From positions 1-22,187 of the forward strand of contig CAZZIO010000004.1 in assembly GCA_964654465.1 (NCBI GenBank): a stretch of 22,187 nucleotides of DNA, given 5' to 3'. The translations under genes and the position numbers were made by a program. This document shows, piece by piece, positions 17,769 through 22,090 of this stretch (the first letter of the stretch is position 1; each line of letters opens with the position of its first letter). The DNA is from an uncultured Dictyoglomota bacterium (GTDB taxonomy: Bacteria; Dictyoglomota; Dictyoglomia; Dictyoglomales; Dictyoglomaceae). The notes beneath the pieces were generated by a model. That model ran no database searches and was not told where the DNA came from. It worked only from the letters and a program-made list of their open reading frames with translations.

Positions 17769-20057
17769 TTATTTTATTGGCTTAGTCTCTTTTAGAATGA
17801 ATTCTATAAAATAATCTGAAAGCTCTGGATCAAATTGGGTACCTTTATACCTTTTTATCTCTTGAATAGCTTCATCGATGGTTAATTGTCTTTTATATGG
17901 TCTAAAAGCAGTCATGGCTTGAAAGCTATCAGCTAATGTAATAATTCTTGATAAAAAGGGTATATCATTTCCTGATAATCCATCAGGATAACCCTTTCCA
18001 TCCCATCTTTCATGGTGATGCCTAATTATTTTACTTATGTCTCTAAAGACTGATATATGGTGTAAAAGTTCTTCGCCCCATACAGGGTGCATTTTCATTA
18101 TCATATATTCCTCATCAGAAAGTTTTCCAGGTTTTTTCAGAATAAAATCTGGCACTTTTATCTTTCCAATATCATGAAGATAGGCAGAATACTCTAATCT
18201 TCTCATATCTTCCTCATTAAGAAGTAAACTTTTACCAAAATTTACTGTTATGTTACCTACTTCTTTTGAATGTCCTCCTGTATAAGGATCTCTTGCATCT
18301 ACCATCTCTACAATGGTGATTAATGTTTCACGATGAAGTTTAAATATCTTTTTTTCCATTTCCTCATTGTAAATATATGCAGAAATTAAAGGGGCAAATT
18401 TTTCTATAATGGAAAGGTCATCGTTAGTAAAAATTCTGTTTTCTCTTAGGCTGTTTATGTTTATTACCCCAACTGGTTCATTCTTGTGTATTAGCGGATA
18501 ACATATAGAGGATTTGATTTCAAAACGGGGTTCTATAATTTTAAATCTTTTATCTTTGTATACATCTTCTAATATTAAAGGTTCTCTGTGCTCTAAAACC
18601 CATCCTGCTATTCCCTCGCCTTCTTTTAGAACACTATTCTTTATTACCTCATGAGGTATATTTATCCCAACTTTAATTTTTAATATTTTATTTTCTTTAT
18701 CATAGATCATTATTGATCCTGCATCAGCTTTAAGAATATGTAAGACTCTTTTTAAAAGATTTTCTAAAAGAATATTTTCATCCTCTTTTTTGGAAAGTAG
18801 ATTCATAATTTCATTTATCTCTTTTTCCCTATCTATCTTCTCTTTTATATATAACCTTGTTAATGCATTTTGAAATTCTTCTGATAAAAGGTTAAAGTAA
18901 GTAATAGGATAAGGAATATTTTCTTCAATTATTAATACAGAATAAATATTTCCCTCTACCATAAAATATCTTCTATAACCTTCCATATTTTCTATGTCTT
19001 CAATTGTTAATGAATATCCTTTTTCTTGAGGATAGGAGTAGGCAAGAAAAAATTCTCCATTTTTTCTCTTGTAATATTTGATATTGGAATTGGGAAAAAG
19101 TTCTTTTAATTTTTCAAAATATACTTTTTCTATATCATCTAAGTTTTTTTGAGCTATATCTTTGAGAAAAGTGTATGCTAAATTGATCTCTTTAGTTCTC
19201 TTTTTTACTTCCCTCTTGAGATATTCTCTGCTTCCTAAAATGCCGATTAATAGAAGGATAATTATAGTAATCATAAAAATTAAAGCATTAGATACTGCTT
19301 CTTTCTTTTTATATTCCAGCCTTAGTAATACTTCTTCCCCAAACCATTTAGTTAAAAGATTTCTATAATGTGTACTATTTAGTATCTCAGTTAAGCCTTT
19401 TTTAATCTCAGAATAATAAGGGCTTCCTTTAGGAAGGGCAATACCTGCAAAACTTGAAAAGAGTTTATCTTGGAGTATTTTAAGTTGATCATTCCAATTA
19501 TTTTTATTTATGATATATCTTGCCACGTAGTAATTAAGTACTCCAGCCTCAGCTTTTCTTTCTATTAAAGCTTGAACAACAAGCTCAGAACTTTTAAAAG
19601 GAATAGTCTCTGTTATATCCTTTAAAAATATATGAGCTACATCTTGGTTTAAAACTGCAACTTTTTTATTTTTAAGATCACCAAAGCTTTGTATAGGTGA
19701 ATCAGAGGGTATTATTATTACACTAAAGCTCTCTAAATATGTGATAAAATCATATTTTCTTTTTCTTTCATCGGTTACCCTCATAAACTCTATGCCATCA
19801 ATTTCTCTTTTGTCAAGAAGTTCTACTGCTTCATTCCATGGTACTAGTATTATATTGATCTTTTTATTAATCCTTTTTTCCAACTCTCTTATAATATCTA
19901 CTGCAAACCCTTGAGGAATTCCCTGGGAGTCTATATATTCGATAGGAGGAAAGTTATAATCTCCTGCAAAGGTAAGAGTATTTGTGTTCTCACCTTTTGC
20001 AGGAAAAAACATTAATAATAGAAGTATTATGATTTTTAGGATTAGAAATTTTTTCAT
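17769..20057 (-). CDS. Membrane-bound HD-GYP c-di-GMP phosphodiesterase with extracytoplasmic solute-binding (family 3) sensor and GAF domain
   Basis: Signal sequence; SBP_bac_3 (DYNFPPIEY..QGFAVDI..PW..L...EID); TM helix; GAF (GEGIAGWVL..EPL...D..KDKRF, GVINI); DARDPYTGGHS, LHDIGK, KKPGKL, HHERWDGKGYPDGL, ADSFQAMT, GTQFDP. Confidence 0.92.
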   Translation of the reverse strand: MKKFLILKIIILLLLMFFPAKGENTNTLTFAGDYNFPPIEYIDSQGIPQGFAVDIIRELEKRINKKINIILVPWNEAVELLDKREIDGIEFMRVTDERKRKYDFITYLESFSVIIIPSDSPIQSFGDLKNKKVAVLNQDVAHIFLKDITETIPFKSSELVVQALIERKAEAGVLNYYVARYIINKNNWNDQLKILQDKLFSSFAGIALPKGSPYYSEIKKGLTEILNSTHYRNLLTKWFGEEVLLRLEYKKKEAVSNALIFMITIIILLLIGILGSREYLKREVKKRTKEINLAYTFLKDIAQKNLDDIEKVYFEKLKELFPNSNIKYYKRKNGEFFLAYSYPQEKGYSLTIEDIENMEGYRRYFMVEGNIYSVLIIEENIPYPITYFNLLSEEFQNALTRLYIKEKIDREKEINEIMNLLSKKEDENILLENLLKRVLHILKADAGSIMIYDKENKILKIKVGINIPHEVIKNSVLKEGEGIAGWVLEHREPLILEDVYKDKRFKIIEPRFEIKSSICYPLIHKNEPVGVININSLRENRIFTNDDLSIIEKFAPLISAYIYNEEMEKKIFKLHRETLITIVEMVDARDPYTGGHSKEVGNITVNFGKSLLLNEEDMRRLEYSAYLHDIGKIKVPDFILKKPGKLSDEEYMIMKMHPVWGEELLHHISVFRDISKIIRHHHERWDGKGYPDGLSGNDIPFLSRIITLADSFQAMTAFRPYKRQLTIDEAIQEIKRYKGTQFDPELSDYFIEFILKETKPIK

Positions 20058-20060
20058 GTA

Positions 20061-20095
20061 ATAAGAAAAAGAAGGACCCCCTTGAGGGTCCCCCT
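20061..20095 (-). terminator. Intrinsic terminator between the peptide gene and the HD-GYP gene
   Basis: The minus strand reads AGGGGGACCCT-CAAG-GGGGTCCTTCT (11-bp stem including G-U pairs) followed by TTTTCTT. The U-tract ends 5 nt before ATG20057. Confidence 0.8.
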
Positions 20096-20121
20096 CCCCC
20101 CTTCCAGATAATTTTTTTAGC

Positions 20122-20262
20122 TTACTTGTTAGAAAGATTTACTACAACCTCTACAGGTGGCTTAGAGGTATAGGTTTGGTTTTCACCTGGTGCTGGGTCA
20201 GCAAAAACAATATTAAATAATGATATAATCAATATTATTAAAATGGTTATTATTTTCTTCAT
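20122..20262 (-). CDS. Small secreted propeptide, 46 aa (not in the ORF track); candidate signalling peptide
   Basis: MKKIITILIILIISLFNIVFA-DPAPGENQTYTSKPPVEVVVNLSNK*. SD AAGGAGG (20277-20271) is 8 nt from the ATG. Classic Sec signal (KK, hydrophobic core, VFA cleavage). It has its own promoter and terminator. Confidence 0.85.
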   Translation of the reverse strand: MKKIITILIILIISLFNIVFADPAPGENQTYTSKPPVEVVVNLSNK

Positions 20263-20290
20263 TAACATATCCTCCTTTAAGATAACTTCT

Positions 20291-20320
20291 ATTTTAACAA
20301 TATATCTTTTTATTTGACAA
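20291..20320 (-). promoter_or_regulatory. Sigma70-type promoter of the peptide gene
   Basis: TTGTCA (20320-20315), 18 nt, then TAAAAT (20296-20291) with a TG extension (TGtTAAAAT). Confidence 0.65.
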
Positions 20321-20327
20321 TCAAATA
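20311..20327. promoter_or_regulatory. Perfect 7-3-7 inverted repeat, candidate operator
   Basis: TATTTGA-CAA-TCAAATA, overlapping the -35 of the peptide promoter. Confidence 0.55.
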
Positions 20328-20423
20328 TACTATTAATAAAGATTAAGATATTATCTACATTTTGAGATCCATGTTTCTATACTTTTTCTTATTTTTGATA
20401 TTGCTGTATCTAATATTACTTTT

Positions 20424-20432
20424 TGATATAAT
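20424..20432 (+). promoter_or_regulatory. Extended -10 promoter (TGaTATAAT) of the TPR-HTH gene; very short leader
   Basis: Consensus TGnTATAAT 11 nt before ATG20444, with no SD between them. Confidence 0.6.
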
Positions 20433-20443
20433 AAAACAAAAAT

Positions 20444-22090
20444 ATGTATAAAAAGGTACATACTATCTCTTATATTTTATTTAAATATGGTAATTTTTCC
20501 AAACCCTTTTTAAATCTTATGTTAGAGGAAAAATTGCCAAAGGAGTGGTATTATTATTTTGTTGCTCAGAGATATAAGTGGTCTCAGGATTATGAACTGG
20601 CTCTACAATATGTGGAAAAAGCCCTGAAACTTTCCAAAGATAATTTAACCCTATATTATATTTTGCTTTCGGATAAAGTTAATTTTCTTAGGTTTCTTAA
20701 AGACAAAAATGCTGAATTTATATTAGAGGATATTAGGAAAAATTTTTCTAAAATTCCCATTCTTGCCAGGAAGATAATTGCACCTATCCTGTATGATTAT
20801 TATCTAAAAAGGTCCTACGAGGGAAGATCTGCTAAGATACGTTTTTGGAGTAAGGAATATCTTAAAGATCCATCTACTTATGTTTTTATTCTTTGGAATA
20901 GGGCAAATATGGAAGTAATGGAGAATAACATAAGATCGGCAATAAGGCTATATTTTGAAGGAGCAAAAACTGCTTTAAAAATTCCCCATCCTACAGGAAT
21001 TTTATCTAATCTTAATAATGCTTCTTGGTATCTTAAAGATATACATCCTTGCTTTTCTCTTAACATATCTAAAAAGGCTTGTTATTATTTAGGCTGTTTT
21101 AGGGAGGATATGGAGGGAAGGTTTTATATTCTTGATACTTTGTTTGAGATACAAAAGATTGTAAGAGATGAAGATATATGGGAGACAGCGGAAATAATTT
21201 GTCTTTTATATGATGATCTTCCAGAAAAGGGAGGATGGGGAACAAAGGAGCATTATAAGAGTTTATTTGAGTTTTGTAATACTAAGAGAATTAATTTTGA
21301 TATCTCAAGTTATGAAAATACAAAAGAGCTTAGGGAGTATCTAATTAATATTGGAAAAGATAAAAAATTGTATGAGCTATCAGATATTTTGGGTATAAGT
21401 AAGCCTAATCTCTCAAAAATATTAAAAGGTTGGACTTTTAAGGTAAGATCAGAGACTATAAGAAATATACTTGAAAGGATAGATTTAAAAGTAGATTATA
21501 TGAATGATCCATATCCCATTGTAAATGAGTATGTAAAGTTAAAGATAATTATGGAATTTCTACAAAACAAAGAGAAGTTAAAGAAGATTTCAAAGGAAAA
21601 AAGGAAGATACTTTTTATAAGTACTTATATGAGTTTAATTAAGAGGAATGATTATAAAGGTAATTTTAATTTAAAAGAACTTTATAGTCTTTTTATAAAT
21701 GATATAGATCTTTTTATTCAAAAGGCTGAAAAAAATATGTTTATCATGTGGTTTACAAACAAGATTATTGGAAAATCTCATCCTCTTTTGGAGGGAAGAA
21801 AAGACCTTGCAGTTAAATTTTTTAATATATTGCCTTTGAAGAAAAGGGACAAATTTATAAATTACTATTTAAATCTTAATGAGAAAGATAGGATCTTAAT
21901 TGATGAATTTATAAGGAATTATGTGAGGTATGATAGGAAATGGGGTGTTTCTTTTTCTAAGGGTATGTTAAAAAATTTTATTCAAGAATTTAGATTAAAA
22001 CCTCTTCCTACATTACTTTCTGTCTACTCCTTGGATAAGAAATCAGAAAGAAAACGATTAGTAAATATACTTGATAAAATGGTGTTATAA
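20444..22090 (+). CDS. TPR-repeat + internal XRE-like helix-turn-helix protein, putative peptide-responsive regulator
   Basis: TPR-like helices YYYFVAQRYKWSQDYELALQYVEKALKL and ILWNRANMEVMENNIRSAIRLYFEGAKTALKIPHPTGILSNLNNASWYL. HTH at about aa 306-345: KKLYELSDILGISKPNLSKILKG..KVRSETIRNIL. Helical C-terminal domain. No signal peptide or TM segment. Confidence 0.72.
   Translation: MYKKVHTISYILFKYGNFSKPFLNLMLEEKLPKEWYYYFVAQRYKWSQDYELALQYVEKALKLSKDNLTLYYILLSDKVNFLRFLKDKNAEFILEDIRKNFSKIPILARKIIAPILYDYYLKRSYEGRSAKIRFWSKEYLKDPSTYVFILWNRANMEVMENNIRSAIRLYFEGAKTALKIPHPTGILSNLNNASWYLKDIHPCFSLNISKKACYYLGCFREDMEGRFYILDTLFEIQKIVRDEDIWETAEIICLLYDDLPEKGGWGTKEHYKSLFEFCNTKRINFDISSYENTKELREYLINIGKDKKLYELSDILGISKPNLSKILKGWTFKVRSETIRNILERIDLKVDYMNDPYPIVNEYVKLKIIMEFLQNKEKLKKISKEKRKILFISTYMSLIKRNDYKGNFNLKELYSLFINDIDLFIQKAEKNMFIMWFTNKIIGKSHPLLEGRKDLAVKFFNILPLKKRDKFINYYLNLNEKDRILIDEFIRNYVRYDRKWGVSFSKGMLKNFIQEFRLKPLPTLLSVYSLDKKSERKRLVNILDKMVL

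Follow-up and report, generated by a model that had tools for sequence, protein, structure and literature searches.

The stretch analysed here, referred to as the window, is a contig of 22,187 nucleotides (nt) from an uncultured Dictyoglomota bacterium (CAZZIO010000004.1, assembly GCA_964654465.1). Its positions 17769-22090 hold three genes that form a candidate peptide-signalling cassette: an HD-GYP gene and a small signal-peptide gene on the minus strand and, divergent from both, a gene for a regulator of 548 amino acids (aa) on the plus strand. The small open reading frame (ORF) lies 64 bases upstream of the HD-GYP gene on the same strand, and 181 nt separate its ATG (20262) from the start of the divergent regulator gene. 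A first-pass annotation made from the sequence had listed as parts an SBP-GAF-HD-GYP gene, a 46-aa signal-peptide gene with promoter, palindrome and terminator-like hairpin, and a divergent regulator combining tetratricopeptide repeats (TPR) with a helix-turn-helix (HTH). All of these are present, and the interpretation as a signalling module is supported in every computationally testable part. The host, too, lies outside the Firmicutes, as that annotation had held probable: near-identical proteins carry the names Dictyoglomus or Dictyoglomaceae. The genes and intergenic elements are as follows.

17769..20057, minus strand: HD-GYP gene, 762-aa membrane protein (Pfam, NCBIfam, HD and GYP motifs).
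20063..20102 (core), minus strand: G+C-rich hairpin with a T-run, intrinsic-terminator-like (free energy -25.8 kcal/mol, z -4.8 against shuffled sequences).
20122..20262, minus strand: peptide gene, 46-aa pre-peptide (conserved in orthologous loci, family hidden Markov model (HMM), ratio of nonsynonymous to synonymous substitution rates (dN/dS)).
20271..20275, minus strand: Shine-Dalgarno sequence GGAGG, 8 nt before the second ATG, conserved in the Dictyoglomaceae alignment.
20291..20320, minus strand: promoter-like site of the peptide gene, TTGTCA-18-TAAAAT with a TG before the second hexamer (consensus match only).
20312..20326, no strand: palindrome ATTTGA-N3-TCAAAT (15 bp) over the -35 of the peptide promoter, putative operator of the adjacent HTH regulator.
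20424..20432, plus strand: extended -10 of the regulator gene, TGATATAAT, 11 nt before the ATG and without a Shine-Dalgarno sequence.
20444..22090, plus strand: regulator gene, 548 aa, predicted cytoplasmic (models, fold searches, alignments).

The small ORF (20122-20268, minus strand) encodes 48 aa from its first ATG (20268) and 46 aa from the second (20262). The pre-peptide is predicted to comprise a Sec-type signal peptide, MKKIITILIILIISLFNIVFA, followed by a 25-aa polar and proline-bearing exported part starting DPAPGENQT. The layout of the signal peptide (MKK, then IITILIILIISLF, then NIVFA, with D after the predicted cut) was read directly from the sequence and is repeated in all aligned homologs. 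Dictyoglomaceae peptides measure 46-49 aa and follow the pattern MKK-hydrophobic-A/D-x4-5-GNQT-x3-4-P-x-V-E-V (slash = predicted cut). Three same-genus orthologs (G000, which is the window's genome, G003 and G004) gave dN/dS values of 0.21-0.34. Searches of the peptide against Pfam and NCBIfam gave no family match. An HMM built from 11 non-Dictyoglomaceae peptides ranked the window's ORF first among the 11,314 small ORFs of its genome (E 5.4e-9), with the runner-up at E 0.084. Judged by these sequence comparisons and by the homolog loci described next, the small ORF is real and linked to the regulator.

This linkage was followed through the homologs of the regulator, whose flanks the first-pass annotation had singled out for scanning. 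Across 11 Dictyoglomota genomes searched, full or partial regulator orthologs occur in G001-G005, G007 and G008; G003 and G004 are complete genomes in a single contig. All six other Dictyoglomaceae genomes with a readable regulator 5′ flank (G002, G003, G004, G005, G007 and G008) have the small ORF, in each case between the regulator and the HD-GYP gene. Losses are shared as well: G006 and G010 are without both regulator and peptide, and in G009 (L060, 3980-6117) one deletion took the N-terminal part of the regulator, the intergenic region with the peptide gene and the first ~166 HD-GYP codons, leaving a 90-aa regulator remnant beside a truncated HD-GYP gene.

Beyond these genomes, homolog loci were collected by a scan of one genome per species with a 9-sequence alignment (30 loci) and by a metagenome scan (76 loci). 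The species-level loci belong to Dictyoglomaceae, Mesoaciditoga, Athalassotoga, Kosmotogales, Petrotogaceae, Atribacterota and unclassified metagenome-assembled genomes. We tabulated the 81 loci that cover the regulator N-terminus (20 of the 30 and 61 of the 76) and dropped 25 partial matches. A divergent ORF matching the peptide HMM (E ≤ 0.01) was found at 63 of 78 loci with at least 350 nt upstream, a count in which the 18 first-found peptides used to build that HMM match by construction. When identical regulators were merged, the peptide was present at 54 of 68 loci (39/44 long forms, 15/24 short forms). The first-pass annotation had named the lack of a conserved neighbouring small secreted ORF as grounds for giving up its reading; this does not apply, because such an ORF is conserved at the homolog loci.

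Co-variation of receptor and peptide, also raised there, was assessed across 26 closely related group-B pairs. The correlation with peptide identity was r 0.63 for identity of the TPR-like domain, r 0.58 for that of the C-terminal domain and r 0.28 for that of the HTH; with the C-terminal domain held constant, the TPR-like domain kept a partial r of 0.39. Because group-B sequences are related, this is suggestive at most as evidence for pairing. In the group-B metagenome loci (L074-L114) the regulators are ~88% identical, and the mature peptides fall into discrete C-terminal types (...PVVCVME, ...VVVETIR and ...VVxSVER) that resemble pherotypes.

The regulator is divided into three domains, all on the plus strand.

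20444-21289: TPR-like superhelix, residues 1-282 (AlphaFold model, fold search).
21311-21526: XRE-type HTH, residues ~290-361 (second model, fold search).
21548-22087: helical C-terminal domain, residues 369-548 (conserved; no clear structural match).

An AlphaFold model built with 25 homologs reached a pLDDT of 89.7 and a pTM of 0.89, and a separate model of residues 285-548 a pLDDT of 91.0. Profile searches of the regulator itself found no Pfam family and no RNPP_C or TPR Pfam match above cut-off; Pfam gave sub-threshold scores for TPR_2 (16 bits) and HTH_3 (15.2 bits against a cut-off of 23), and NCBIfam likewise gave sub-threshold TPR and HTH matches only. Among its homologs, HTH_26 was matched in 9/24 (best E 2.2e-5) and HTH_3 in 7/24 (best 3.3e-6). 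An HMMER search of 1.84 billion proteins (E ≤ 0.001) put the family at 110 cluster representatives, mostly of 450-580 aa.

In the fold searches, the best match of the TPR-like domain among 48,161 chains was the phage phi105 Rap protein with its peptide (Z 15.2, root-mean-square deviation 4.6, 263 residues). Further RRNPP receptors were among the matches, namely NprR-NprX (Z 13.5), RapI (13.0), PlcR-PapR (11.8), AimR (11.8) and the pLS20 Rap (11.5), with Z below about 13 being common for helical repeats. The HTH fold matched ~40 XRE chains with Z 5.0-6.7 over 57-72 residues. Foldseek against the PDB at E ≤ 0.001 returned no match for the whole model or the C-terminal model, and the ESM Atlas gave mere leads to HTH_3+TPR clusters (score 0.91). 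The C-terminal domain carries seven residues that are invariant in the alignment (R452, Y475, D487, F489, R491, Y493 and R495). Its resemblance to microtubule inner proteins in a wide structural search (Z 8.3) extends over 93 residues only and is not interpretable. According to these models, the regulator is a TPR+HTH protein with permuted domain order and an additional domain. The suggestion that the receptor is non-canonical is thus borne out by the AlphaFold models and fold searches, which place the TPR-like domain ahead of the HTH and add the C-terminal domain. A complex prediction of the regulator with pre-peptide residues 19-48 scored 0.00 without controls and is evidence neither way.

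The window's contig stops 97 nt past the regulator gene, and a 1.6-kb contig of the same assembly (C16; L003, 3-239) encodes the last 79 residues of the regulator a second time, at 96% identity. This second partial copy is probably due to strain heterogeneity or an assembly break.

Regulator and peptide are accompanied by a third conserved element, the palindromic box. The exact 15-bp sequence ATTTGA-N3-TCAAAT occurs only once in the 1.91-Mb genome, and its palindrome columns are invariant in the alignment of six Dictyoglomaceae loci. Of 65 peptide loci, 61 have the core T[TC]TG[AG]-N3-TCA, placed 48-72 nt ahead of the peptide ATG, and 15 of 16 further loci have the looser TTG[AG]-N3-TCA, against a rough chance expectation of ~0.1 per 700 nt. 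In the anchored intergenic regions this box is the most conserved stretch, and the only one that stays invariant from one diverged group to another in the alignments; in Dictyoglomaceae it extends to the full 15-bp palindrome. The triad of regulator, peptide and box thus crosses phylum boundaries, and the box is presumed to be bound by the adjacent HTH protein. At up to one mismatch, the palindrome has 24 genomic sites against 14 for a reversed control pattern, an excess too weak to name any further regulon target. In L036, L040, L046 and their relatives, another stretch ~25-35 nt upstream of the TTGA-N3-TCA box is also conserved and in part palindromic (CCTTATT-N-CATAAGG type); it is possibly a second operator in these non-Dictyoglomaceae groups.

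The promoter-like site of the peptide gene comes from a scan of the region for sigma-70-like sites that yielded 31 against 26.5 expected. On the regulator side, TTATTATATCAGAAA, the complement of the extended -10 block, is conserved in the Dictyoglomaceae alignment, and G004 has the same spacing. Because the extended -10 lies only 11 nt before the ATG and a Shine-Dalgarno sequence is missing, the arrangement suggests that the regulator mRNA is leaderless or nearly so.

The HD-GYP protein has a signal peptide and a transmembrane helix of its own, with HD at residue 628 and GYP at residue 689. Its domains (minus strand) are the following.

19335-19976: SBP_bac_3, residues 28-241, 86 bits (Pfam; predicted periplasmic).
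18378-18785: GAF_2, residues 425-560, 60 bits (Pfam).
17820-18311: HD_5 (HD-GYP), residues 583-746, 146 bits against a cut-off of 27.2 (Pfam).

From this architecture, the protein is presumed to be a phosphodiesterase of cyclic di-GMP (c-di-GMP) and the candidate output of the module. Full-length orthologs adjoin the module in G002, G003, G004, G007 and G008. Flanks of 2.5 kb or more are available for 29 distinct loci; at 19 of these an HD-GYP gene follows the peptide gene on the same strand, 11 being of the Dictyoglomaceae SBP-GAF-HD-GYP type and 8 coming from an Atribacterota-like group. Four of the latter were scanned with Pfam and proved to be REC-PAS-HD-GYP (two), DUF4118-PAS-HD-GYP and PAS-HD-GYP proteins with HD and GYP motifs present. 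The association noticed in the window therefore recurs in other lineages with non-orthologous HD-GYP architectures, and because HD-GYP returns with unrelated sensor domains, a functional link to c-di-GMP turnover can be argued.

At the junction of the two minus-strand genes, the hairpin follows the peptide stop codon, the T-run comes next and the HD-GYP ATG lies ~5 nt further on. A hairpin at this position was found at 7/7 Dictyoglomaceae loci, with differing stem sequences, and at 0/11 loci of other phyla. The HD-GYP gene may be transcribed by read-through of the hairpin or from its own promoter; -10-like elements lie 7-8 nt before its start codon in G003 and G004. As a separate observation, the 260-690-nt gap between the peptide gene and a REC-PAS-HD-GYP gene in L081, L087, L088 and L092 holds a conserved near-perfect hairpin (GACCTGGCAC...GTGCCAGGTC), which parallels the Dictyoglomaceae hairpin at the same place.

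A hairpin that ends a few bases before an HD-GYP start devoid of a Shine-Dalgarno sequence could also act in cis, as an attenuator of the HD-GYP gene with the small ORF as its leader peptide and no intercellular signalling. We consider this very improbable: the ORF codes for what reads as a typical Sec signal peptide, purifying selection acts on it from end to end, and it is kept in other phyla where the hairpin (0/11) or an adjacent HD-GYP gene is missing.

The peptide of Dictyoglomaceae might, alternatively, be a ligand of the periplasmic SBP_bac_3 domain and tune the HD-GYP protein directly, the regulator merely setting expression. Peptide and SBP domain are both predicted to lie outside the cytoplasmic membrane, and the two genes are adjacent in 7/7 module-bearing Dictyoglomaceae genomes. 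SBP_bac_3 domains typically bind amino acids, however, and the NCBIfam matches of this one are glutamine, arginine and histidine binders. Elsewhere the peptide family adjoins HD-GYP proteins with cytoplasmic REC or PAS sensors, or no HD-GYP gene at all. Because the HD-GYP partner varies or is missing outside Dictyoglomaceae, the constant partner of the peptide is the regulator, and we regard direct tuning through the SBP domain as improbable.

Outputs other than HD-GYP are carried by ten of the 29 flank-rich loci. L040 (Athalassotoga saccharophila NAS-01) and L055 carry, in this order, peptide gene, Cys-rich precursor ORF, radical-SAM/SPASM enzyme and transporter, as in a cluster for a peptide made by ribosomes and modified post-translationally (RiPP). 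L086 has a radical-SAM gene, and an ORF in L137 begins almost identically; L036 has an arginase-family gene whose N-terminus is shared by an ORF in L039. HD-GYP and RiPP outputs hence both recur behind the box. Two Mesoaciditoga-type loci, L037 (3876-4595) and L098, possess the box, no peptide ORF was found in them, and the next divergent gene codes for a secreted protein that is solute-binding-like by its N-terminus. Two Thermotogota loci, L046 and L049, have a strong GGAGG and a 7-codon micro-ORF (MFRYKPP and MYKCKSP) directly after the peptide gene.

The peptide gene itself also takes another form. In the Kosmotogales/Petrotogaceae loci L041, L042 and L043, the gene behind the same promoter box codes for a signal peptide with peptide units in tandem behind it, and it reads as a multi-copy peptide precursor. 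The L042 version (Petrotogaceae) comprises 15 units, five of 17 aa and ten of 23 aa, each starting with DP as the single peptides do, and a stand-alone HD-GYP gene lies behind it.

Dictyoglomus also carries regulator paralogs of 483-507 aa that lack the HTH segment and keep the TPR-like and C-terminal domains (L025 in G004; L026 and L027 in G003). A TTGAAAGTCA box lies ~150 nt upstream of them, and their neighbours are radical-SAM and ABC-transporter genes. L027 (985-1970) additionally contains a degenerate second module, in which a 136-aa N-terminal fragment of a paralog diverges from a signal-peptide ORF with the mature part DPLEDDNKKKESKIL (HMM E 5.5e-4); a 48-aa Cys-rich ORF resembling a RiPP precursor comes next.

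These variants bear on whether the peptide is a signal or a product. It could be an envelope or extracellular effector, an antimicrobial or a matrix component made by a divergent operon under control of the regulator, whose TPR-like domain would then sense another protein, a metabolite or a nucleotide. Adjacency and a common promoter box show co-regulation, not sensing; the HTH-less paralogs have the same box before ABC-transporter and radical-SAM genes without a peptide gene; and TPR proteins unrelated to pheromones match the fold equally well. On the other hand, the peptide gene is nearly always first after the box while the later genes vary (HD-GYP, RiPP, arginase-family, secreted), which is a pheromone-like pattern. 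L040 and L055 have a separate Cys-rich precursor as the evident RiPP substrate, and the 15-unit tandem precursor is consistent with a short, diffusible peptide being released in amplified amounts. We therefore hold a role as product to be rather unlikely.

We consider it moderately probable that the cassette is a peptide pheromone-receptor system, RRNPP-like in function and forming a separate new family, that is often wired to c-di-GMP degradation. In such a system, the small gene would give rise to the 46-aa pre-peptide, which would be exported by Sec and cut by signal peptidase after VFA, releasing a peptide of ~25 aa (DPAPGENQT...VVVNLSNK), possibly with further trimming. Once cells are dense enough, this peptide or one of its fragments would re-enter the cell, probably via an Opp/Dpp-type importer; the genome has 10 SBP_bac_5 genes. 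Inside, it would bind the N-terminal TPR-like domain of the regulator, whose central XRE HTH would sit on ATTTGA-N3-TCAAAT over the peptide -35. Binding would alter transcription of the peptide gene by activation or derepression (autoregulation) and, through read-through of the hairpin, that of the HD-GYP gene, thereby lowering c-di-GMP.

Several observations weigh against this interpretation. Generic TPR proteins match the TPR-like domain equally well (LGN, Z 14.7; Cut9, Z 14.0), so the RRNPP resemblance shows fold class only, and a 25-homolog profile run against all PDB sequences (E ≤ 10) returned no RRNPP chain and one unrelated hit. RRNPP receptors have an N-terminal HTH or three-helix bundle followed by the TPR, whereas the order here is TPR, HTH and an extra 180-residue domain. 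An HMM of the mature part alone, built from other phyla, did not place the window's peptide among its 8 best matches; most of the signal across phyla therefore comes from the signal peptide and the junction at the cleavage site. Beside 14 of the 68 distinct regulators there is no peptide match: three of these have the tandem precursor, two (L047 and L033) are cut by a contig end just past the box, L047 still showing the peptide start, and nine are of the short class, including the HTH-less paralogs. The loci are moreover kin to one another and not independent observations, so the counts overstate independence; the signal is carried by roughly four diverged lineage groups. As to the box, its TTGA may simply be the -35 hexamer, and since the HTH-less paralogs at L025, L026 and L027 have the box upstream as well, another factor could bind it. 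Between the peptide gene and the HD-GYP gene stands a strong terminator, the HD-GYP start is without a Shine-Dalgarno sequence, and G006 has an HD-GYP ortholog without the module; given the terminator and G006, coupling of peptide and HD-GYP is not obligatory. Finally, peptide-regulator binding, export, processing, re-import and expression are predictions from sequence and models.

The cassette shares with the RRNPP(A) systems (Rap/Phr, NprR/NprX, PlcR/PapR, PrgX, Rgg/SHP, ComR/XIP and AimR/AimP) a cytoplasmic receptor made of a TPR-type superhelix and an XRE HTH, an adjacent gene for a pre-peptide of 40-50 aa (exported there, predicted to be so here), a palindrome over the -35 of the promoter that serves the pheromone gene, and variable output genes behind that gene. 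The HTH-less Dictyoglomus paralogs are reminiscent of the HTH-less Rap proteins among RRNPP receptors. It differs in that neither sequence nor profile comparison relates the window's regulator to a solved RRNPP chain, and in its hosts, which are Dictyoglomota, Thermotogota and Atribacterota rather than Firmicutes. We do not count it as an RRNPP member, because sequence homology and domain order fail, though the layout works like an RRNPP cassette.

Three further systems invite comparison. Streptococcal Rgg/SHP systems have been described as driving radical-SAM RiPP operons (PMC13361665, PMC9389541). The streptide-type layout of regulator, divergent small hydrophobic peptide, Cys-rich precursor, radical-SAM/SPASM enzyme and transporter is the one met in L040 and L055. 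Here, by contrast, the regulator is unrelated by sequence, the output in the window is an HD-GYP gene and not a RiPP operon, and the peptide is predicted to have a classical Sec signal peptide, whereas SHP peptides are exported by PptAB. In the diffusible signal factor (DSF)/RpfC-RpfG system of Xanthomonas, a fatty-acid signal leads a membrane kinase to activate an HD-GYP protein by phosphorylation. The likeness lies in a cell-to-cell signal coupled to an HD-GYP phosphodiesterase, with density lowering c-di-GMP; in the cassette, however, a peptide would carry the signal and coupling would be transcriptional. In Thermotoga maritima, a thermophile also outside the Firmicutes, a small peptide has been tied to density-dependent behaviour (Johnson et al. 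2005, as cited in PMC6022435). That account, as cited there, describes no cognate TPR/HTH receptor or HD-GYP link.

The RRNPP literature, as far as covered here, treats cytoplasmic peptide-receptor quorum sensing as belonging to Gram-positive Firmicutes and the mobile elements they carry (including PMC10075063 and PMC9765709). The main text of these two surveys does not mention Dictyoglomota, Thermotogota or Atribacterota, and a 2018 survey of thermophiles reported none of its searched quorum-sensing proteins in Dictyoglomi (PMC6022435). No description of this cassette was found in the literature searched, supplements excepted. That Dictyoglomota, Thermotogota and Atribacterota share a new pheromone-receptor family, with a Sec-exported pheromone (of 15 units in Petrotogaceae), one operator and c-di-GMP or RiPP outputs, appears to us about evenly balanced between true and false.

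Were it true, RRNPP-type quorum sensing would not be a Firmicutes invention, or would have arisen twice, and peptide quorum sensing would extend to three further phyla, several of whose members are thermophiles. The tandem-unit precursor and the permuted receptor bear on the evolution of such systems, and the family-specific box can be used to mine for further outputs, new RiPP clusters among them. Experiments in cultivable Dictyoglomus and Athalassotoga strains would have a receptor, a peptide and an operator, all defined, to start from. For the organism itself, peptide signalling would be linked to c-di-GMP turnover. This second messenger controls aggregation and the formation of biofilms, and multicellular 'rotund bodies' are known from Dictyoglomus.

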